A DNA stretch of 64,000 nt from an uncultured Lachnospiraceae bacterium (GTDB lineage Bacteria > Bacillota > Clostridia > Lachnospirales > Lachnospiraceae): the NCBI GenBank assembly GCA_902798585.1, contig CADBXF010000005.1:82824-146823 (forward strand), read 5' to 3'. The notes under the pieces were generated by a model. That model saw only the letters and a list, made by a program, of their open reading frames with translations, was not told the origin of the DNA and did not search any database. A program made the position numbers and the translations under genes. This document shows, piece by piece, positions 15,528 through 60,994 of the stretch; the stretch's first letter is position 1; each line of letters opens with the position of its first letter.

Positions 15528-15971
15528 TCAGCCTTCAATCGAGATATATTTCTTCTCTTCCACCTTCGGCTGCGGCTCCTTCTTCGGAACCGTGACAATC
15601 AGGATACCGTTCTCGAAACGGGCCTTGATATCCTCCTCCGTCACCTGCTTGCCGACATAGAAGCTTCTGCTGCAGGAACCGCAGAAACGCTCGCGACGAA
15701 TGTAGCGGTCGTTCTTGTCCTTCTCATCGTCCTCCGTCTTCTTGGTGGCGTTGATTGTCAGATAGCCGTTCTTAAGCTCCGCCGTGATATCCTCCTTGCC
15801 GTAACCCGGAAGATCGATATCCAGCTCGAAACCGTTCTCATTTTCCTTGACATCCGTCTTCATCAATCCGTTCATAGGACGGGCGCCTGCAAAACCGGGC
15901 TTTGCCGGAGCAAGGAAACCGTCAAACAAATCATCAAAAAGGTCTTCACCGAAAACTCTTGGCATAAACAT
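15528..15971 (-). CDS. Hsp20/alpha-crystallin family small heat-shock protein
   Basis: 147 aa. Alpha-crystallin domain pattern (DVKENENGFELDIDLPGYGKEDI...GILIVTVPK). Confidence 0.92.
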   Translation of the reverse strand: MFMPRVFGEDLFDDLFDGFLAPAKPGFAGARPMNGLMKTDVKENENGFELDIDLPGYGKEDITAELKNGYLTINATKKTEDDEKDKNDRYIRRERFCGSCSRSFYVGKQVTEEDIKARFENGILIVTVPKKEPQPKVEEKKYISIEG

Positions 15972-16097: not shown

Positions 16098-16126
16098 GTT
16101 ATACCACTTGTTAGCACTCATGTCAA
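16098..16126 (-). promoter_or_regulatory. sigma-A promoter of hsp20, interleaved with CIRCE
   Basis: On the minus strand: TTGACA (16126-16121), a 17-nt spacer, then TATAAC (16103-16098). Confidence 0.6.
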
Positions 16127-16137
16127 GCGAGTGCTAA
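16111..16137 (-). promoter_or_regulatory. CIRCE operator (HrcA binding site)
   Basis: Perfect match to TTAGCACTC-N9-GAGTGCTAA: TTAGCACTC(16111-16119) ATGTCAAGC GAGTGCTAA(16129-16137), about 140 nt upstream of the hsp20 start. Confidence 0.9.
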
Positions 16138-16205
16138 CAATTTCTTTGTGAATTTTTTGTGTTTCCAAAAAAAAAATACCGATATTTCTCCGGAAAATAC
16201 CCGCC

Positions 16206-51973: not shown

Positions 51974-53767
51974 ATGGAAAACAAGAAAAAATACCCGAAG
52001 TCACGACTCGGCTGGCTGTGGGAGAACATGGAGGGGCAGCACGCGCTTTTCATCGTCGCGCTGTTCGGAACCGCCCTGTACAATATTCTGCAGCTTGTCG
52101 TTCCGCATTTTTCGAGAAAGCTGATCGGGCTCTTCGAGGACGCGCATAAAAACAATCTGCCGCTTGCCGACAAAGAGGACACCATCTACACTCTGATTGC
52201 GCTGATGGTCGGTCTTACGCTGTTCCGCGTCATCATCGTTTATCTGGACTGCATGGCGTACGAGCGGGTTTCGCAGGGAACTCTGTTCCGGATTCGCAAC
52301 TTCCTCTACAATAAAATTCAGCGCCAGGACATGAAATTTTACAGCACCTACCGAACCGGCGACCTGATGACCCGCGTGACCGGTGACCTCGATGCCGTGC
52401 GTCACAATATCGCCTGGGTCATCCGGTGCATCGTGGAATCGGTGACGCTGTTTTTGTCGGCCACGGTGTACTTCTTCACGATTGACGTGGTTCTCGCACT
52501 GTGCATCGTATCCATCGCGCCGCTCATTTTCTTCATCGTGTTCCGCTTCCGAAGGAATGTCGCGCCGATGCATAAGGCGCTCCGCGAGAAGCTTGCAGGC
52601 ATGAACACCGACGCCCAGGAGAACATCTCGGGAAACCGCGTGGTTAAGGCTTTTGCGCGCGAGGAATATGAGAAAGACAAATTCAATCGCTCCAACGAGG
52701 ATTACCGCGACACCAACATCAAAACGCAGATGGTCTGGCTTCGCTTCTTCCCCTTCGTCGAGTTGATTGCCAACGCGCTTCCGGTCATCCTGCTTTTGGT
52801 GGGCGGCGTGTTCATCATCAACGGCCGCATCAACTTCGGCGATTACACCGCATTTTCCCTTTTGATCTGGGCGATTGCCAACCCGATGCGCATGATGGGC
52901 AACATCATGAACGAATTCCAGCGCTTCAGCGCGGCGTCCGACAAGATCATGGAAATCTACTACTCCGAGGCGGAGATTGTGGATCACCCCGACGCCGTTG
53001 CGCATCCGGATCGCTTTGAAGGCAAAGTCGAATTCGAGCATGTCAGTTTTCAATATGAGGACGGCAAATTGCCTGTTCTTAAGGATATCACCTTCACCGC
53101 GGAGCCCGGCGAGACCGTCGCCATCATCGGCGAGACCGGTTGCGGCAAGACTTCGCTCATTCAGATGATTCCGAGATTTTACGAACCGAACTCCGGCACG
53201 GTCCGCGTGGACGGCGTTCCGGTGGAAAATTACAGGCTGACCGATCTTCGCAAAAACATCGGTCTTGCAACGCAGGATGTTCTGCTGTACTCCGATACAA
53301 TCGAGGGCAACATCTCCTACGGGGCCATGGCTCTTACCGCGGAGGAAGTCGAGAAATACGCCAAATACTCGGCGGCGTCCGACTTTATTCACCACATGCC
53401 GGAGGGCTACGACACTATCGTCGGCGAGCGCGGCGTCGGTCTCTCGGGCGGTCAGAAGCAGCGTATCTCCCTCGCGAGAGCGCTGGCAATCCGGCCTTCC
53501 ATCCTGATTCTCGACGACACCACCTCTGCGGTCGATATGGAGACGGAGAAGCAGATTCAGCACAGCCTGCGGAATCTTGATTTTCCGTGCACGAAGATTA
53601 TCATCGCACAGCGTATCTCGACCACGAAATTCTGCGACAAGATTCTCGTCCTGAAGGACGGCGAGATTATCGAGTCCGGAAACCACAGAGAGCTTGTCGC
53701 CGCAGGCGGCTACTATGCGGAGCTTGTTAAGCTGCAGCTCGGCGAGTCGCTTGTGAGCGCATCGTGA
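51974..53767 (+). CDS. ABC transporter ATP-binding/permease protein
   Basis: 597 aa. GETGCGKTS, LSGGQKQR, LILDDTTS. Confidence 0.92.
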   Translation: MENKKKYPKSRLGWLWENMEGQHALFIVALFGTALYNILQLVVPHFSRKLIGLFEDAHKNNLPLADKEDTIYTLIALMVGLTLFRVIIVYLDCMAYERVSQGTLFRIRNFLYNKIQRQDMKFYSTYRTGDLMTRVTGDLDAVRHNIAWVIRCIVESVTLFLSATVYFFTIDVVLALCIVSIAPLIFFIVFRFRRNVAPMHKALREKLAGMNTDAQENISGNRVVKAFAREEYEKDKFNRSNEDYRDTNIKTQMVWLRFFPFVELIANALPVILLLVGGVFIINGRINFGDYTAFSLLIWAIANPMRMMGNIMNEFQRFSAASDKIMEIYYSEAEIVDHPDAVAHPDRFEGKVEFEHVSFQYEDGKLPVLKDITFTAEPGETVAIIGETGCGKTSLIQMIPRFYEPNSGTVRVDGVPVENYRLTDLRKNIGLATQDVLLYSDTIEGNISYGAMALTAEEVEKYAKYSAASDFIHHMPEGYDTIVGERGVGLSGGQKQRISLARALAIRPSILILDDTTSAVDMETEKQIQHSLRNLDFPCTKIIIAQRISTTKFCDKILVLKDGEIIESGNHRELVAAGGYYAELVKLQLGESLVSAS

Positions 53768-53782
53768 GGGAGGTGACGGACA

Positions 53783-55564
53783 ATGGCTGAAAAAAACACT
53801 TACAAACAGGATGAACGCCTTGACGAGCCGTTTAATATCCGACATCTCCTGCTCGCCTCAGCATACATCAAAAAATACCTTCCGAAGATGGTCCTGGCGC
53901 TTATCATAAGCGCCCTCGGCGCCGCTGCCGGCTTGTTAGCGCCGATTTTCACGCAGAAGGCAATTGACAGCGCCATTCCGAATGCGGACAAGCCGTATCT
54001 GTTCCTTTTGGGCGGACTGCTCGTCCTCGTCTTCGCCGTGAGCGTCATTCTCGGACTGCTTCGGTCGCGCCTGATGATTCGCGTTTCGCAGAGCATCATC
54101 TACGACATCCGGAAGGATTTGTTCGCGCATCTGCAGAAGCTTCCGTTCCAGTACTATGACGACCGGCCGCACGGCAAGATTCTGATTCGCGTTGTAAACT
54201 ATGTAAACTCCGTTTCGGATATGCTCTCGAACGGTCTCATCAATGTCATCCTCGAGATGATTAACCTTGTATTGATTGTCATCTTCATGTTGATTGTGGA
54301 TGTACAGATGACACTTGTGGTTATGTGCGGCGTTCCGTTCCTCGCAGCGTTTCTGTTCTGGATCAAGAACCGCCAGCGCCGGGCATGGCAGAGAGTTTCC
54401 AACAAGAACTCGAACCTCAACGCCTATCTTCAGGAGAACATTGTCGGCGCACGCATCACACAGATTTTCGCCCGCGAGGACGAGAATGCGAAGATTTTTT
54501 CCGGTCTTGCCGACGACTGTCGCCATACCTGGATGCAGGCCGTCCGCTGCAACAACCTCGTATGGCCGGGCATCGACGCAATCTCGGTATGCATTCGTGC
54601 CGCAATCTTCATCTCCGGCATGATTCTCTTCGGCCAGGGCGAGAAGACCATCGGTACTATCCTCGCGATCTCGAGTTACTCCTCGCGATTCTGGCAGCCG
54701 ATTATGAACATGGGCAACATCTTCAATAATTTCCTGAACAACATGGCGTATCTCGAGCGCATCTTTGAAACGCTCGGCGAGCCGGTTACCGTGGACGATG
54801 TTGAAAACGCCGAAACGATGCCTCCGATCAAGGGTGCGGTATCATTCCGCGATGTCTGCTTCTCCTACGAACCCGGCAAGGAGATTCTCCACAAGGTTTC
54901 CTTCGATGTCAAACCCGGAATGAGTGTTGCGCTTGTCGGTCCGACCGGCGCAGGCAAGAGCACCATCGTCAACCTCATCTCCCGCTTCTACAATGTGGAT
55001 TCCGGGCAGGTCTTGATTGACGGTCAGGACATCTCCCAGGTGACACTGTCCTCCCTTCGAAGCCAGATGGGCATCATGATGCAGGACAGCTTCATCTTCT
55101 CCGGCACCATCAGGGACAACATCCTCTACGGAAAGCTTGACGCCACCGACGAAGAGATTGCCAAGGCCTCGAAGCTTGTCTGTGCGGATTCCTTTATTCA
55201 GGGCATGTCCGACGGTTACAACACCGAGGTTAAGGAGCGCGGTTCGCTCTTAAGCCAGGGACAGAAGCAGCTCATCTCCTTCGCCCGCACCGTACTCTCC
55301 GACCCCGCAATCCTCATCCTCGATGAGGCGACCTCGAGCATCGATGTGCAGACCGAGAAAGCCCTCCAGCAGGGGTTAAACTCCATGCTCAAGGGCCGCA
55401 CCTCCTTCATCATCGCCCACCGCCTCTCGACAATCCGCGGATGCGACCTGATCATGTACATCAACGACGGCGGCATCACCGAGGCCGGCACCCACGACGA
55501 ACTGATGGCGAAGAAGGGCGACTACTACCACCTGTACACCTCGCAGTTGGAAGATATTGCGTAG
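53783..55564 (+). CDS. ABC transporter ATP-binding/permease protein (heterodimer partner)
   Basis: 593 aa. GPTGAGKST, LSQGQKQ, LILDEATS. Confidence 0.92.
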   Translation: MAEKNTYKQDERLDEPFNIRHLLLASAYIKKYLPKMVLALIISALGAAAGLLAPIFTQKAIDSAIPNADKPYLFLLGGLLVLVFAVSVILGLLRSRLMIRVSQSIIYDIRKDLFAHLQKLPFQYYDDRPHGKILIRVVNYVNSVSDMLSNGLINVILEMINLVLIVIFMLIVDVQMTLVVMCGVPFLAAFLFWIKNRQRRAWQRVSNKNSNLNAYLQENIVGARITQIFAREDENAKIFSGLADDCRHTWMQAVRCNNLVWPGIDAISVCIRAAIFISGMILFGQGEKTIGTILAISSYSSRFWQPIMNMGNIFNNFLNNMAYLERIFETLGEPVTVDDVENAETMPPIKGAVSFRDVCFSYEPGKEILHKVSFDVKPGMSVALVGPTGAGKSTIVNLISRFYNVDSGQVLIDGQDISQVTLSSLRSQMGIMMQDSFIFSGTIRDNILYGKLDATDEEIAKASKLVCADSFIQGMSDGYNTEVKERGSLLSQGQKQLISFARTVLSDPAILILDEATSSIDVQTEKALQQGLNSMLKGRTSFIIAHRLSTIRGCDLIMYINDGGITEAGTHDELMAKKGDYYHLYTSQLEDIA

Positions 55565-55644
55565 AAACGGCGAGCGCCGTAATCGGCGGCAGTGAGTGAC
55601 CGTCAGGGCAAGTCGGTGTCAGTGAGTGATTGTAGTTTTTTAGT

Positions 55645-55860
55645 ATAAGTCAGGGTTAGTTGGGTTGGCTGCTTTAGTTGCTTTAGTTGTTTTGCTTTTG
55701 GTTAGTCGGGTTGGCTTGGCCGGGTTAGTTGCTTTGGCTGCTTTAGTTGGTTTAGCTGTTTTGGGTCAGTCGGGTTGGCTTGACCGGGTTTAGCCGGGTT
55801 AGTTGCTTTGGGGTACTTTAGGTTGCTTTTGGTTGCTTTTGGTTTTGGTGCTGGTGTTGA
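55645..55860 (+). repeat. G+T-skewed degenerate repeat tract (non-coding)
   Basis: Words GGGTTGGCTTG, CCGGGTTAGTTGCTTTGG, GCTTTAGTTG and GGTTGCTTTTGG recur. Two units of about 75 bp begin near 55704 and 55767. Very few A or C on the plus strand. Stops occur in all frames. Confidence 0.8.
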
Positions 55861-55866
55861 TTATTT

Positions 55867-55896
55867 ACTCCCCGCAGGCAGACGCCTGCGGGGAGT
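55867..55896 (+). terminator. strong hairpin, probable terminator of the plus-strand ABC operon
   Basis: ACTCCCCGCAGGC-AGAC-GCCTGCGGGGAGT followed by TGTTTGT (interrupted T-tract), about 300 nt after the stop at 55564. Confidence 0.6.
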
Positions 55897-56007
55897 TGTT
55901 TGTCAGAGGGATGTGGGTGTTTTCTTGTGATTGGTCGGTGCTGTAGCTGCGTTTTTGCGGGATGATGACCGGTGAATCGGCTTGCCAAACGGAAATTTCA
56001 AAAAAAT

Positions 56008-56296
56008 GCGGTGGTTTCTGCGAACAAGCGAAAAACCACCGCAATTGTACCCGACTCACTTGGGTAAAAAAGCAGCTTCCGAAGCAATTGCGGTGGTCTT
56101 TCAATTCTTTTATGAATTCCACCGCAATAAAAACAGGACAAAAGCCCACTCCAAGAGAATCCCGTAATTTTTGTGCGGTGGTTTTTCCAAAGCAAGGCAT
56201 ATTCCACCGCCAGACGGGTAAAACCTGCACATTGAGACAGGTACAAAAAGCAAGAATTGCGGTGGTTTTTCCACGACAACGGAAAAACCACCGCAA
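56008..56296. repeat. phased array of four GCGGTGG...CCACCGC palindromic units
   Basis: Left and right arms: 56008-56014/56036-56042; 56090-56096/56119-56125; 56175-56181/56204-56210; 56259-56265/56287-56293. Spacing is 82, 85 and 84 bp. Unit 4 is a perfect 16-bp stem, TTGCGGTGGTTTTTCC-N8-GGAAAAACCACCGCAA. Unit 1 is followed on the minus strand by T7. Confidence 0.9.
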
Positions 56297-56491
56297 CATC
56301 ATAAAAAACAAGTTAAAACATGTCTGCTGACCCGGCCCGCAACGCCGATATAACCAACAAAGTCTACTTAATCGACAAAACCGACATATGCCGCAACGCC
56401 GGTACAATCGGCATTATCAACAGACAGCCCGGTCTTCAAAAGTCTTCAAATCAAAGCCAATCGGCCAACCTATCAGTCATCGAATGATTCT

Positions 56492-56593
56492 CTGTGATTC
56501 ACTCATCCGATCAGTCCATCTTCGGGAGCTGAGCAAGGCTTGCTGTGATTCACTCATCCGATCAGTCCATCTTCGGGAGCTGGGCAAGGCTTG
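56492..56593 (-). repeat. 51-bp tandem duplication spanning the trpB2 stop codon
   Basis: 56492-56542 and 56543-56593 are identical except for one base (A at 56531 versus G at 56582). Each copy carries the last 10 codons (SLAQLPKMD), the stop codon and 19 nt. Confidence 0.9.
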
Positions 56594-57935
56594 CTGCGAT
56601 TTCTTCGTCGGTCGGGATATAGTCGCCCATCTCGCCGTTGTTGAACTTCTCGTAAGCAACAAGGTCGAAGTAGCCGGTGCCTGTCAGACCGAAGACGATG
56701 GTCTTCTCCTCGCCGGTCTCCTTGCACTTGAGAGCCTCATCGATGGCAACGCGGATTGCGTGCGAGCTCTCGGGAGCGGGAAGGATACCCTCAACCCGGG
56801 CGAACATCTCCGCAGCTTCAAATACCTTAGTCTGCTCAACGCTTCTTGCCTCCATGTAGCCGTCCGCGTACAACTGGGAAAGCGTGCTACTCATACCGTG
56901 GTAGCGAAGGCCGCCTGCATGGTTCGGAGCGGGCATGAAGTTGCTGCCGAGGGTGTACATCTTCGCAAGCGGGCAAACCATACCGGTGTCGCAGAAGTCA
57001 TATGCATACTTGCCGCGCGTTAAGCTCGGGCAGGATGCCGGCTCAACTGCGATAATGCGGTAATCTTTCTCACCGCGAAGCTTCTCGCCCATGAACGGAG
57101 AAATCAAACCGCCGAGGTTCGAGCCGCCGCCTGCGCAGCCGATAATCATATCCGGAACGATTCCGTATTTGTCAAGAGCAGCCTTGGTCTCAAGACCGAT
57201 TACGGACTGGTGAAGGAGTACCTGATTCAACACACTTCCGAGCACATAGCGATAGCCGGGAGTGCTCACAGCGACTTCAACAGCCTCCGAAATAGCGCAG
57301 CCGAGGCTTCCGCCGGTTCCGGGATGCGCCGCAAGGATACGCTTGCCGACCTCGGTCGTCTCCGACGGGGACGGGGTAACACTTGCGCCGTAGGTTCTCA
57401 TAACTTCACGGCGGAACGGTTTCTGCTCATAGGAAACCTTAACCATGAAAACCTTGCAATCAAGATCAAAATACGAGCAGGCCATCGAGAGCGCCGTGCC
57501 CCACTGGCCGGCACCGGTCTCCGTGGTAACACCCTTAAGGCCCTGCTTCTTTGCGTAATATGCCTGCGCGATAGCGGAATTCAGCTTGTGGCTTCCGCTC
57601 GTGTTGTTGCCCTCAAATTTGTAGTAGATTTTTGCGGGTGTTCCGAGTTTCTTCTCAAGGCAGTAAGCACGAACAAGCGGCGACGGGCGGTACATCTTGT
57701 AGAATTCGCGAATCTCTGCGGGAATCTCGATATAGGCATCGTCGTTGTTCAATTCCTGCGCAACAAGCTCATCGCAGAACACGCCGGACAGTTCCTCAGC
57801 TGTCATCGGCTGGTGCGTTCCCGGGTTAAGGAGCGGCGCGGGCTTGTTCTTCATGTCCGCACGCATATTGTACCATGCCTTAGGCATCTCCTGCTCTTCA
57901 AGGTAAATCTTGTAAGGGATCTCTTTGTTCGACAT
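56562..57935 (-). CDS. TrpB2-type tryptophan synthase beta-like PLP-dependent enzyme
   Basis: 457 aa. The N-terminal extension MPKAWYNMRADMKNKPAPLLNP is characteristic of TrpB2, as is the core NTSGSHKLNSA (PLP Lys) and GGGSN. No trpA or other trp genes lie nearby. Confidence 0.88.
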   Translation of the reverse strand: MSNKEIPYKIYLEEQEMPKAWYNMRADMKNKPAPLLNPGTHQPMTAEELSGVFCDELVAQELNNDDAYIEIPAEIREFYKMYRPSPLVRAYCLEKKLGTPAKIYYKFEGNNTSGSHKLNSAIAQAYYAKKQGLKGVTTETGAGQWGTALSMACSYFDLDCKVFMVKVSYEQKPFRREVMRTYGASVTPSPSETTEVGKRILAAHPGTGGSLGCAISEAVEVAVSTPGYRYVLGSVLNQVLLHQSVIGLETKAALDKYGIVPDMIIGCAGGGSNLGGLISPFMGEKLRGEKDYRIIAVEPASCPSLTRGKYAYDFCDTGMVCPLAKMYTLGSNFMPAPNHAGGLRYHGMSSTLSQLYADGYMEARSVEQTKVFEAAEMFARVEGILPAPESSHAIRVAIDEALKCKETGEEKTIVFGLTGTGYFDLVAYEKFNNGEMGDYIPTDEEIAASLAQLPKMD

Positions 57936-58050: not shown

Positions 58051-58335
58051 AAAAAAACCTGTCCCGCATTAAATTGGTTAATGCCGGGACAGGATTCATA
58101 TCTTTCCTGCGGTGCCACCCTGCTTGATGCTTTCGCATCCTCTTTCGCGCATACAGTATATGCCGGTCTTTGTTCACGGGGGAGCCTCACCCCGGCGCCT
58201 ATACTCCGGACGAATCCGTTTCCTCTTGCCCTCAAAAGCCCATTCAATTCTTCCGATGTTGCCGCAATCCCAGCGCCTGCGACTCTCTGTGTACACCGTG
58301 GTGAAGAATCTACTCACTCTTTCTCATCGGTTTAA
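58051..58335 (-). promoter_or_regulatory. T-box riboswitch leader (probably tRNA-Trp specific)
   Basis: Minus strand: K-turn/GA region GAUGAGAAAGAGUGAGUAG, AGAGAG box, T-box sequence GGGUGGCACCGC (58120-58109), and terminator CCUGUCCCGGCAUUAA...UUAAUGCGGGACAGG plus U7 (58093-58051). A candidate specifier is GAA-UGG-G (UGG at 58242-58240). Confidence 0.8.
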
Positions 58336-58339
58336 AGTT

Positions 58340-58368
58340 TTTATACCACGATGATCGCGCCGTGTCAA
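58340..58368 (-). promoter_or_regulatory. sigma-A promoter of the T-box/trpB2 unit
   Basis: Minus strand: TTGACA (58368-58363), a 17-nt spacer, then TATAAA (58345-58340). Confidence 0.65.
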
Positions 58369-58389
58369 GCAGGATTTGAATGATAGCGA

Positions 58390-58441
58390 GTGAAATAAAG
58401 GCGGAATGACACGAGCAATGCGAAGTGTCAATTCCGCCTTT
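58390..58441 (-). terminator. long hairpin, probable terminator insulating the trpB2 promoter
   Basis: AAAGGCGGAATGACAC-N12-GTGTCAATTCCGCCTTT (one bulge), followed on the minus strand by TTTATTT. Confidence 0.5.
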
Positions 58442-58810
58442 ATGAGCGAGTAACAAACACGAGCAAGAAGCCGCGCGTCAGCACGGCGGGATTGCGAGTG
58501 TTTGCAGGATTGCGAGAGTGCGAAGCACGTAGCAATCCGTCCTATCATTCAAACCTTTGCGAGCGAAGTGCAGACATGAGCAAGAAGCCACGCGAAGCGG
58601 GGCGGGATTGCGAATGGCTGCAGGATTGCGAGAGTGCGTAGCACGAAGCAATCCGTCTTATCACTCAAATCTCCAATGAACGAGTAACAAACACGAGCAA
58701 GAAGCGATGCGAAGCAGCGCAGGATTGCGAGTGCTCTACGTTGGTATGGCGTAAGTCGGTGCAGGATTGCGAGAGTGCGAAGCACGGAGCAATCCGTATC
58801 ATTCACTTAC
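58441..58810. repeat. three degenerate tandem units of ~117-141 bp, each ending in a GGATTGC-N18-GCAATCC hairpin
   Basis: Hairpins at 58507-58538, 58623-58654 and 58764-58795 (GCAGGATTGCGAGAGTGCGnAGCACGnAGCAATCCGT). GAGCAAGAAGC at 58461, 58578 and 58695. Extra half-sites GGATTGCGA[GA]TG at about 58489, 58605 and 58721. Confidence 0.85.
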
Positions 58811-58827: not shown

Positions 58828-59307
58828 CTACTTCACCTGTCCAAGCGGAGTGGCCAAATAGATTTCGGCATTATATTCGAGATATACAATGTCCTCATGA
58901 ATGTTCACTGCCAGTCGTTCATAAACCATATTGCCGGTTATGCCAAACAAACCATCACATTTAAAGTCTCTGATAAATGCCTCCTGCCGTCCGGATTTCT
59001 CCTCTTCCGTAAACAAATCCGCTCCAAGAACGGACCCCTTCGTGGGGTTATTCAAAATCATCTGGAGTTCATCCCATTCCGATAACATGTCCTCTTTTAG
59101 TCTGTTATATTCTTCAACGCTCATCTCGAGGCGCTTACGCTTCTTTTCCGGAGCATCTTCCTTAACCTTAGTCACATATTGATCGAACTTCTGCGTCTCT
59201 TTTTCAAAGTGCCTAAGTGGAACATAGCGGCCTGCAATCCTGAAAAACACGACAGTCACAACAGCAAGCAGTAAAAGCAATGCTAACGCAATCCATTTCT
59301 TTTTCAT
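58828..59307 (-). CDS. hypothetical N-terminally anchored protein (lower-GC)
   Basis: MKKKWIALALLLLLAVVTVVFF anchor, then a charged helical region (EDAPEKKRKRLEMSVEEYNRLKEDM). No recognised domain. Confidence 0.55.
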   Translation of the reverse strand: MKKKWIALALLLLLAVVTVVFFRIAGRYVPLRHFEKETQKFDQYVTKVKEDAPEKKRKRLEMSVEEYNRLKEDMLSEWDELQMILNNPTKGSVLGADLFTEEEKSGRQEAFIRDFKCDGLFGITGNMVYERLAVNIHEDIVYLEYNAEIYLATPLGQVK

Positions 59308-59334
59308 TGCCAAACACCTCCGTACCCCCATGTT

Positions 59335-59523
59335 ATAGTTATAGTTATACTTCTGTCTTTCATCATCGTATTATAGAGTCATACCCCTTCTTTACCTTTT
59401 CTACAGATTAGGGTATGCTGTTAAAGATGCTGTGGATTGGTTCTGTTCTCCTACCGCATAGACGGTTTTTGAAAGGCTCCAACCACAGCCTCTTTGTCTC
59501 AATGTTAATCAGTTAGATACCGC
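59335..59523 (+). ncRNA. candidate IS110-type bridge (guide) RNA region in the 5' non-coding arm
   Basis: About 190 nt of non-coding sequence upstream of the IS110 recombinase. Stem GCTGTGGATTGG (59429-59440) pairs with CCAACCACAGC (59479-59489). TACCGCAT(A)GACGGTTT occurs at 59452-59468 and again at 59518-59533, across the ATG. Assigned only by analogy to published IS110/IS621 biology. Confidence 0.3.
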
Positions 59524-60732
59524 ATGACGGTTTATGTAGAACGAGGTTACATCCGGCAGAGAGCCCTGTGTGGTATCGATGTTGCCAAGGACAAGCATGA
59601 TTGCTGCATCCTCGGCTCGAATGGAGATGTTTTATTCCCACCGTTCACCTTTCCGAACTCCTTGCAAGGATTCGACCTGCTCTATGAGAGGATCGGGTCT
59701 TTGACCTCCGACCTGTCCAAAATAAAAGTAGGTCTTGAGGCTACCGGGCATTATCATCTCAATCTTCTGCGCTCGCTCCTTGATAACGGCCTGGCCAGCT
59801 ATGTTATCAACCCGCTACATACAAATCTTTTCAGAAAAGGTCTAAGCCTTAGAAAGACGAAAACGGATAAAGTCGACGCTTCTTCGATCGCTATGATGCT
59901 GTTAACCGATAGGACACTCAAGCCCTACACGGACACATCATACCACAACGAAGAACTAAAGTCATTAACCAGATATCGTTTTGATAAGGTTCGTGAACGA
60001 TCTAAACTAAAGGCGTCTGTCTCCAGACTTGTCAGTATCCTGTTTCCGGAACTGGAAACCCTCGTCCCAACGATTCATTTGGTTTCCGTTTATGCTTTGC
60101 TGTCAGAGTTTCCCGGGGCTTCGTTCGTTGCCTCCGCCCATCTGACGCGTCTTACTCATCTCCTCAAAGAGTCTTCAAAAGGACGCTACGGACGGGAAAT
60201 GGCCATCTCCTTTCGTGCCGCAGCGGTTTCCTCAATCGGTTCCGTCTTTCCGGCTAAATCCCTGGAACTTAAACACACCATCCATCTCATTGAAGTTCTT
60301 ACCGAGGAGATTGATGAGATTGAAGCTGCCATTAATGACATCATGGATACGTTGAATTCTCCAATCACAACGATTCCCGGCATCAAGAACCGGATGGGTG
60401 CCATGATCCTTGCAGAGATTGGTGACTTCTCCAAATTTGAAAATGCGGACCAAATCTTAGCGTATGCCGGATTATCTCCCTCAACCTATCAGTCCGGTCA
60501 GATGACATCCTCCCATGCCCGGATGGAGAAGCGGGGCTCCCGCTACTTGCGATACGCTTTATTCAACGCAACGCAGTATGTCTGTATTTGGGACCCTGCT
60601 TTCAAAGCTTATCTCGCCAAGAAACGGGCAGAAGGGAAGCATTATTTCGTTGCCACCTCCCACGCCTGTAAGAAACTCGTTCGGTTGATTTATCGGATGC
60701 AGTTAACCGGCGAAGCTTACCGAATCGCCTAG
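59524..60732 (+). CDS. IS110 family transposase (DEDD recombinase)
   Basis: N-terminal CGIDVAKDKHD (DEDD RuvC-like motif) and the C-terminal Tnp domain IPGIKNRMGAMILAEIGDFSKFENADQILAYAGLSPSTYQSGQ. Confidence 0.92.
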   Translation: MTVYVERGYIRQRALCGIDVAKDKHDCCILGSNGDVLFPPFTFPNSLQGFDLLYERIGSLTSDLSKIKVGLEATGHYHLNLLRSLLDNGLASYVINPLHTNLFRKGLSLRKTKTDKVDASSIAMMLLTDRTLKPYTDTSYHNEELKSLTRYRFDKVRERSKLKASVSRLVSILFPELETLVPTIHLVSVYALLSEFPGASFVASAHLTRLTHLLKESSKGRYGREMAISFRAAAVSSIGSVFPAKSLELKHTIHLIEVLTEEIDEIEAAINDIMDTLNSPITTIPGIKNRMGAMILAEIGDFSKFENADQILAYAGLSPSTYQSGQMTSSHARMEKRGSRYLRYALFNATQYVCIWDPAFKAYLAKKRAEGKHYFVATSHACKKLVRLIYRMQLTGEAYRIA

Positions 60733-60994
60733 CATGAACTCTGGCCTTTTCTTATCGAGCACCCACAAGGATGCTCTGTTCGTCATGCAGTTTTCAAGGT
60801 GCTGATTTAATGAAGTATAAACTTCATTTTAGACTTGACTTTTAATAGTTAGTCTTACGCTCGCTCTCTGCCCGAAGCAATCGGATTTGGATGAACGACA
60901 CTTTTTTTGGATGAACGACACAAAAAGAGCTGCCGCCGGCGATAATAATCGCAGAAGCGACAGCTCCATGATTTCATTTCTTCGCATAGAAATG

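Follow-up and report, generated by a model that had tools for sequence, protein, structure and literature searches.

The palindrome array and its genomic setting

The question raised by this locus is what purpose, if any, is served by four related palindromes set at regular intervals in the spacer downstream of trpB2. A pattern search of the window (the whole 64-kb stretch of DNA that was analysed) for GCGGTGG-N10-30-CCACCGC returned exactly four matches, at 56008-56042 (unit 1), 56090-56125 (unit 2), 56175-56210 (unit 3) and 56259-56294 (unit 4). Only 0.02 +/- 0.14 matches were expected and none of 100 dinucleotide shuffles reached four, which confirmed the palindromes that the initial annotation had placed with left arms starting at 56008, 56090, 56175 and 56259 (intervals of 82, 85 and 84 bp). 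The units are extragenic, imperfect palindromes of 36-40 nt that share an identical, GC-rich stem base. They are 65-78% identical to each other within the array, their centres, which separate the 7-nt core arms by 21-22 nt (N21/22), are unrelated, and the spacers between units are unrelated in sequence and constant in length (44-49 nt). Neither further units outside the array nor other arrays of a similar type were found in the 64-kb window.

Each array contains eight half-sites, written here as (T)TGCGGTGG or as TTGCGGTGG, which alternate in orientation at distances of 29 and 55 bp and give a unit repeat of 84 bp, or 8.0 helical turns. The consensus of 16 half-sites was wwTTGCGGTGGTTTTTc. The same array was recovered in independent assemblies (ENA STEW19 and other samples, NCBI GCA_024687065.1 and JGI Ga0310696) and is therefore no assembly artefact.

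The array sits in a spacer of ~1 kb between a convergent ABC-exporter pair and the T-box-regulated trpB2. The trpB2 gene (56562-57935, minus strand) encodes a TrpB-like PLP-dependent enzyme of 457 aa, as judged by Pfam (PALP) and the names of source proteins, and the array lies in its 3' flank, with unit 4 starting 265 nt past the stop codon. The exporter genes are on the plus strand (51974-53767 and 53783-55564); the second, which converges with trpB2, matched Pfam ABC_membrane and ABC_tran. A 13-bp GC-rich hairpin on the plus strand (55867-55896), detected by the repeat finder and the terminator scan, is the likely terminator of the ABC operon and bounds the array region on that side. The spacer is also rich in other tandem repeats of variable length, including a 51-bp duplication and repeats of 54, 30, 39, ~20 and 9-10 nt.

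The source names of near-identical proteins point to a Lachnospiraceae MAG, and the samples are rumen or gut metagenomes. The window is ordinary chromosome, whose genes encode a histidine kinase, an ECF-type sigma factor, ABC transporters and enzymes for xylan degradation (GH10/GH43). The window ORFs scanned include one IS110 element but no cas, par, recombinase or Y1-transposase gene. A replication terminus or origin was not supported, with no GC-skew switch present, and a plasmid or phage origin was rejected because a blastn search with the 1 kb spacer gave no match.

Unit 4 and the termination of trpB2 transcription

Unit 4 (56257-56296, minus strand), the unit nearest trpB2, corresponds to unit A of related genomes; units 3, 2 and 1 correspond to B, C and D. 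It has a stem of 16-19 bp, and the repeat finder reproduced the perfect 16-bp inverted repeat annotated earlier (TTGCGGTGGTTTTTCC/GGAAAAACCACCGCAA), with core arms at 56259-56265 and 56288-56294. The RNA fold of unit 4 reached -29.1 kcal/mol (z -7.4), the terminator scan flagged the unit as terminator-like on the minus strand, and a U-rich tail, UUCUUGCUUUUUGU, follows it on the trpB2 strand (56243-56256). A stable, GC-containing stem-loop is thus joined to a U-rich tract 3' of the stop codon on the coding strand. From its sequence, unit 4/A is read as the intrinsic terminator of trpB2, all of whose features it has.

Related genomes gave the same picture. In the L132 clade, taken here as genomes whose TrpB2 is at least 97% identical, the tail after unit A is UUUUUGUUUUUUGU; the U-rich character is conserved and is stronger there. 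The orthologs of unit A in L132, L109, L149, L138 and L116 keep the arms, and their distal stem is re-formed with different sequence. Of the three kinds of variant with a single unit, two (L149 and L138/L116) retained unit A, and L149 has no other hairpin between the convergent genes. Where relatives are without the family, the position of unit A is taken by unrelated canonical terminators. The conserved tail, the retention of the unit in L149 and L138/L116 and its replacement by canonical terminators elsewhere indicate that unit 4 is the primary terminator. The earlier proposal that transcription of trpB2 ends at unit 1, leaving a 550-nt 3' UTR, is revised accordingly in favour of unit 4. The further proposal that the units are not simple terminators holds for units 1-3 and fails for unit 4.

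Units 1 to 3

The other three units are weaker hairpins. Unit 3 (B; 56173-56212, minus strand) has a core stem of 7-9 bp, with core arms at 56175-56181 and 56204-56210, around a largely unpaired centre of 22 nt. It folds at -15.8 kcal/mol (z -2.4), lacks a U-tract on both strands and has orthologs in L132 and L109/L110. Unit 2 (C; 56087-56128, minus strand) has a 10-bp stem (ATTGCGGTGG/CCACCGCAAT) and also a 22-nt centre, folds at -17.7 kcal/mol (z -4.9) and has an ortholog in L132. No U-tract adjoins unit 2; between it and a run of U6 stands an extra small hairpin, GCUUCGGAAGC, as read from the sequence directly after the unit on the trpB2 strand (56066-56086, minus strand). At the same place L132 has a different small hairpin, AUUUCGCCGAAAU, then GUUUUGG. 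RNAalifold did not select the small hairpin after unit 2, which may act as a back-up terminator.

The stem of unit 1 (D; 56006-56044, minus strand) is 13 bp long, its core arms lie at 56008-56014 and 56036-56042, and the unit folds at -22.7 kcal/mol (z -5.0). The minus-strand T7 that the initial annotation had reported after this unit is present in the window as the plus-strand A7 at 56000-56006. The L132 ortholog of unit 1 is without the T-run, which is found only in the window lineage, and its absence from the L132 lineage weakens the case for unit 1 as a terminator. None of units 3, 2 and 1 has a conserved U-rich tract directly after the stem of the kind that marks a terminator. Units B and C are not terminators, since they lack an adjacent U-tract and have large unpaired centres.

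Comparison of two lineages

The selective constraint on the array was evaluated against L132, a second lineage whose flanking genes are 86-87% identical to those of the window; the comparison rests on these two deep lineages only. At 4-fold degenerate sites in these genes identity falls to 58-61%, a change of ~40%. L132 carries an orthologous four-unit array that aligns with a single 1-nt gap. The spacing of units is 84/85/83 bp in the window and 84/85/84 bp in L132, and the arm-to-arm distances are 29/29/29/28 bp in both. All core arm bases are identical between the lineages (56/56), while centres are 61% and spacers 55% identical, so that centres and spacers evolve at the speed of synonymous sites. 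At a neutral identity of ~0.6 the chance of 56/56 identity is ~4e-13, and the arms are therefore under purifying selection. The earlier suggestion of selected arms and free centres was borne out, as was that of regular phasing, which is conserved between the lineages at 84 +/- 1 bp.

Only one 1-nt indel occurred across ~230 freely substituting bases of the array, whereas the adjoining spacer is riddled with indels. The length of the array thus appears to be constrained too, given an assumed indel rate. The 28 core pairs contain no G.U or compensatory change across four paralogs and two lineages. The alignment shows that the four-unit layout, the stem-base sequence and the long-range helix described below predate the split of the lineages, and it points to selection as what has kept them.

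Only eight 7-nt blocks and their spacing are frozen, and the sequence between them evolves at the synonymous rate. Such a signature normally marks a macromolecular assembly, yet no known system fits it, and it is the pattern of conserved, phased sites expected of a binding-site array. The array is, on this comparative evidence, a real, selected and lineage-restricted non-coding element with an architecture strongly constrained beyond the probable termination at unit 4.

Long-range pairing and RNA folding

A long-range inverted repeat links the two sides of the array. Its 5' arm on the trpB2 strand, UUGUACCUGUCUCA (56233-56246, minus strand), pairs with its 3' arm, UGAGUCGGGUACAA (56045-56058, minus strand), which abuts unit 1, and the helix encloses units 3 and 2 in both lineages. 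The minimum free energy fold of the trpB2-sense RNA uses this pairing. Between the window and L132, 21 of the 24 bases are identical and the three changes keep pairing as G.U or U-A; in L112 one polymorphism breaks one pair. The repeat is the only significant similarity among the spacers. An invertible segment between its arms was not supported, since the eight contigs with both arms (8/8) share one orientation.

The whole 321-nt sense RNA folds at z -7.6 and all units fold far better than shuffles, with the antisense RNA folding almost equally well. When the five helices were scored together, 98% of cells were paired, compared to 36-51% with partners slid. Three pairs have changed on both sides, a level that 4 of 500 shuffles reached. 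Non-Watson-Crick pairs on the trpB2 strand are G.T rather than A.C by 5:1 in the window and 6:1 in L132, an excess that points to the sense RNA, subject to the caveat that the bias loses significance (estimate, P ~0.1) after allowing for the G+T-rich strand.

Hairpins in RNA and sites in DNA

The explanation that we place first, tentatively and short of calling it probable, is that four stem-loops, passed on vertically and restricted to one locus, act mainly as hairpins in trpB2-sense RNA. Action in RNA explains the terminator, the complementarity kept in distal stems and in the long-range helix, and the wobble bias. The distal stem of unit A, re-formed with different sequence, argues for hairpins rather than bare sequence. 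Local duplication of the terminator, in a spacer prone to slippage, would have produced the three other units. A read-through transcript would then fold compactly into hairpin A, the long-range helix enclosing B and C, and hairpin D. Such a trailer could stop 3'-exonucleases, shield trpB2 from the ABC operon that converges on it and give back-up termination, in both lineages after C and in that of the window also after D. A sequence-specific factor may also read the stem base, as is suggested by a base that is completely invariant amid drifting loops, spacers and distal stems. Should the hairpins work in RNA, the locus would be an example of a terminator duplicated into a larger structured 3' trailer.

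Several results run against action in RNA. Selection on structure only predicts G.U or compensatory changes, and the 28 core pairs have none. The lengths of loops and spacers (29/29/29/28; 84/85/83-84) are conserved, which hairpins do not obviously need. Efficient termination at A would leave the downstream domain rarely transcribed. Units B and C are without U-tracts, the T7 after D is not conserved, the antisense strand folds almost as well and the G.U bias is non-significant after correction for composition. In addition, the lineages compared are only two, and the array has been lost in sister strains, in which it must be dispensable.

A close rival, which we regard as possible but somewhat doubtful, takes the array as phased sites in duplex DNA for a putative sequence-specific protein, with unit A merely doubling as a terminator. 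A repeat of 84 bp is 8.0 helical turns and therefore places all units on one face of the duplex. The sites would form a roadblock or insulator, or a topology site between the convergent operons comparable to gyrase at the BIMEs of E. coli. This best explains the invariance of the core, with its sharp drop to neutral identity just inside and outside the arms, the lack of any wobble or compensatory change in the core among four paralogs in two lineages, and the fixed 29/55/84-bp geometry, identical in both lineages barring one 1-nt indel. It is also consistent with B and C being poor RNA hairpins and not terminators, and with the position of the region between two terminators, where little transcription is expected. 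In contrast, the neighbouring genes, which code for xylanases, ABC transporters and an ECF-type sigma factor, include no candidate binder, and the rest of the window shows no enrichment of the half-site. A dimeric regulator would not usually have its half-sites 29 bp apart with unconstrained DNA between them. What is preserved in the distal stem of A and in the long-range repeat is complementarity and not sequence, sister strains readily lose units, and the argument from length conservation needs an assumed ratio of indels to substitutions. If the array acts in DNA, a sequence-specific binder would be expected at this convergent-gene junction of rumen Lachnospiraceae.

Action in RNA and action in DNA are not mutually exclusive. 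A broader proposal, about which we are equally hesitant, is that the array is a locus-specific, putative nucleoprotein assembly in which a factor reads either the eight half-sites or the four RNA stem bases. Were this true, sites at eight turns would make an insulator, roadblock or topology device between convergent operons that differs from both a simple terminator array and a REP-type element and that would be previously undescribed.

Unit-number turnover

Unit number was stable within the species and variable among relatives. All four units were almost unchanged in the same-species contigs (L001-L005 and L112, the last from GCA_024687065.1), and L132 also has four. Two units (A and B) remain in L109 and L110 and one (A only) in L149, L138 and L116. 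L111 has one hybrid unit with the flank of A and the interior and far flank of D, the product of a deletion in which the left arms of A and D, as direct repeats, recombined; L111 and L109 encode the same TrpB2 protein, yet differ in unit number. L148 has no units and a different, bidirectional terminator. In more distant relatives, different genes lie downstream and the terminators are canonical ones without relation to the family. Two deep lineages hold four units and sister strains hold fewer, and the four-unit state is therefore ancestral and has been repeatedly eroded. These junctions show unit number changing through recombination from arm to arm, as reconstructed from the aligned contigs.

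This turnover bears on an explanation that we consider improbable, namely that the array is a functionless by-product in which a terminator was copied by replication slippage or template switching and only A is selected. The arms of B-D would then match A by short-tract conversion or template switching, and copies would be lost by deletion from arm to arm. The wealth of other length-variable tandem repeats in the spacer, the polymorphic unit number among contigs with identical TrpB2 (two units in L109, one hybrid in L111), the complete absence of the family from L148 and its restriction to a single locus are all in keeping with such an origin. However, four units persist in two deep lineages despite frequent deletion, with spacers that have diverged to the neutral level, and this survival argues for maintenance. 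Arms of 9-15 bp are also very short for conversion to outrun mutation, and conversion leaves the conserved long-range inverted repeat and the spacing unexplained.

Distribution and relation to REP elements

The initial annotation had raised the possibility of a dispersed, REP-like family linked to IS110, and searches of species genomes and metagenomes did not support it. Of the six distinct units known at that stage, four are matched by the strict unit pattern, TTGCGGTGGWWT-N12-22-RNCCACCGCAA. A scan of 185,579 species genomes with it returned 16 stretches, 15 of them single matches in unrelated phyla; the sole relevant match, in Lachnospiraceae RUG13295, fell at the same ABC/trpB2 junction. 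The JGI metagenomes yielded 19 stretches, of which only L132 and L138 are relatives, again at this junction. A loose single-unit pattern gave 96 single matches in viral contigs, about chance by a rough estimate. With one mismatch allowed per arm, matches in ~245 kb of related Lachnospiraceae DNA were at the shuffle level outside the array, and a fuzzy scan of the window likewise gave no more than chance. The family is, by these searches, single-locus, vertically inherited and confined to a few uncultured rumen species. Its reach is accordingly limited to one locus in those few species, and it is dispensable in sister strains.

A mobile REP/BIME-like palindrome family, possibly an IS110 target, is thus very unlikely and is largely refuted on present evidence. 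The notion draws on the form of the units (imperfect palindromes of 36-40 nt with a GC-rich stem base, clustered between genes at gene 3' ends), on the IS at ~59.3-60.8 kb, whose IS110 transposase gene lies 3 kb from the array, and on the documented targeting of REPs by IS110-family elements (PMC1525189, PMC11208160). Against it stand the lack of any further copy in 64 kb, the chance-level relaxed search, and relevant matches (one in the species genomes and two in the JGI metagenomes) that all fall at the same junction. Nor was a Y1/RAYT-like transposase found among the ~50 window ORFs scanned with Pfam. Targeting by IS110 was rejected separately, since the flanks of the IS contain no arm-like sequence and the array is present in the same-species L112, which lacks that IS.

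The enterobacterial REP/BIME cluster is nonetheless the analogue that comes closest in form and position. Both have imperfect palindromes of 35-40 nt whose tip varies above a conserved, GC-rich stem base, in regularly spaced intergenic clusters at gene 3' ends, often between convergent genes. REPs and BIMEs function in mRNA 3'-end protection, in termination and in the binding of gyrase, IHF and Pol I, the same functions that are considered for the array here. The multi-copy dispersal that defines REPs is missing: these are scattered in tens to hundreds of copies and associated with RAYTs, whereas the array family occupies one locus, is inherited vertically and lies near no RAYT. Orientation differs too, in that REPs alternate from one to the next within a BIME and array units B and C point the same way.

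Other known systems

That the locus is a degenerate orphan CRISPR array, or codes for a 28-residue repeat protein, is hardly credible and is already refuted on present evidence: the palindromic repeats of ~36-40 nt with unrelated spacers of constant 44-49 nt, a weak match to Rfam CRISPR-DR25 (E 0.14-0.45; 20.6 bits vs. a gathering score of 36), a 180-aa ORF that spans the array and a repeat of 84 nt, or 28 codons, are outweighed by centres that differ within the array and drift neutrally between lineages, by a window without cas genes and by 82/85/84 spacing that breaks the frame. CRISPR arrays likewise alternate palindromic repeats with unrelated spacers of constant length, but the present array has non-conserved centres, no cas genes, only four units and orthologous 'spacers' common to diverged lineages. 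The ORFs over the array (55865-56407, 55962-56330 and 55998-56291, of 180, 122 and 97 aa) had no Pfam match, and the orthologous array of L132, with its reading frames interrupted in a different way, has no equivalent of them; the ORFs are spurious echoes of the repeat, as initially proposed. A conserved small gene (a 55-aa ORF at 56320-56487) was likewise not supported, with no Pfam match and no conservation in the L132 clade.

Comparison with other systems likewise left the locus apart, as a locus-specific, apparently terminator-derived palindrome array that no Rfam, CRISPR, partition or iteron system fits. All Rfam matches were sub-threshold, the best being FuFi-1 (23.8 bits; gathering score 59.6) and Yfr19 (27.2 bits; gathering score 70). 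The alignments had low posterior probability and resemble chance matches of hairpin content, and that of FuFi-1 was inspected and judged spurious. The F plasmid centromere sopC consists of 12 x 43 bp, each unit with a 7-bp inverted repeat. Plasmid centromeres and iterons of this kind share with the array tandem, helically phased units in which a short inverted repeat is the conserved part. The sopC units, however, are near-identical throughout and lie on a plasmid beside partition genes, whereas the array is conserved in its arms only, is chromosomal and has no par genes.

Intrinsic terminators are matched by unit 4/A, with its GC-based stem and U-rich tract past the stop codon and its place as the sole intergenic hairpin of L149. 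The array differs in having three more hairpins with the same stem base, two of them without U-tracts, together with the fixed spacing and the long-range helix; ordinary terminators, including tandem ones and bidirectional ones at convergent gene ends, do not occur in phased paralogous arrays. A relation to the T-box was rejected because the arms are 3' of the gene and inside stems, and no T-box model matched at the array. The arms do resemble the GGUGG-N-ACCGC T-box core of the trpB2 leader.

Variable repeats and unit deletion in the trpB2/ABC spacer

The four-hairpin array lies in a spacer that carries further repeats of variable copy number, found in the window at 55583-55629 and 55640-55850, at 3000-3150 in L132 (a diverged lineage that also has four units) and at 5375-5500 in L149, a member of the L132 clade with one unit. 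The spacer of the window lineage contains 30-nt repeats that include GTGAGTGA together with 9-10-nt GTT-rich repeats, and that of the L132 clade contains ~20-nt repeats (AAAAGCC...CCG) as well as 39-nt repeats that include a small hairpin, in one to three copies. The copy numbers of these spacer repeats vary among contigs of a single species.

Array units themselves have been lost. The single unit of L111 (2260-2320), a member of the same clade, is a hybrid: its upstream flank is that of unit A, the unit nearest trpB2, and both its interior and its downstream flank are those of unit D, the unit farthest from it. Recombination between the directly repeated left arms, 13 nt long, has deleted the DNA between them precisely. 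L111 and the two-unit strain L109 encode identical TrpB2 proteins.

The region between unit 4 and trpB2

A 55-aa ORF on the plus strand (56320-56487), which gene callers have annotated in public assemblies, lacks both a Shine-Dalgarno sequence and a Pfam match. In the L132 clade the encoded protein is not conserved, conservation being limited to the ATG itself and some 20 nt ahead of it, and the ORF is probably not a gene. On the trpB2 (minus) strand, a weak sigma-70-like promoter match (CAGACA-N17-TATGAT; 56298-56326) ends just before unit 4, and its counterpart at about 2660-2700 in L132 reads CAGGCA-N17-GAAAAT. If active, this putative promoter would give a very short transcript beginning at the unit 4 hairpin.

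The trpB2 stop codon lies within a 51-bp tandem duplication (56492-56601; 2.2 copies with 96% identity) that the same-species contig L112 lacks. In other lineages (L102, L104 and L105), a diverged relic copy of the final ~40 nt of trpB2 directly follows the stop codon, and breakage seems to recur at the 3' end of this gene.

The region upstream of trpB2

The T-box leader that precedes trpB2 (58082-58336, minus strand) matched Rfam with 63.5 bits (E 2e-13), which is below the gathering score of 93, and a scan at the gathering threshold is without this match. The leader has a clear terminator, AAUCCUGUCCCG...CGGGACAGGUUUUUUU, and sits inside a block (58058-58378) that is more conserved in relatives than the coding sequence (about 92% vs. 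about 88% identity).

Upstream of the leader is an interval of about 2.6 kb with two tandem Clostridiales-1 RNA matches on the plus strand (58381-58547 and 58568-58654; 97 and 73.6 bits), a 167-aa ORF on the minus strand (58828-59331) whose N-terminus is hydrophobic and which has no match in Pfam, and an IS110-family element (about 59325-60848). In relatives such as L109, in contrast, only 84 nt separate the GH10 gene from the T-box leader. The Clostridiales-1 copies and the 167-aa ORF are also present in L112, with a 1002-aa ORF where the window has IS110. These differences in size and content among L109, L112 and the window show that Clostridiales-1 accompanies variable, possibly mobile, DNA.

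Elsewhere in the window, a perfect CIRCE-type inverted repeat (16108-16140; TTAGCACTC-N9-GAGTGCTAA), which corresponds to the HrcA operator consensus, lies directly upstream of an HSP20-family gene (15528-15971, minus strand).
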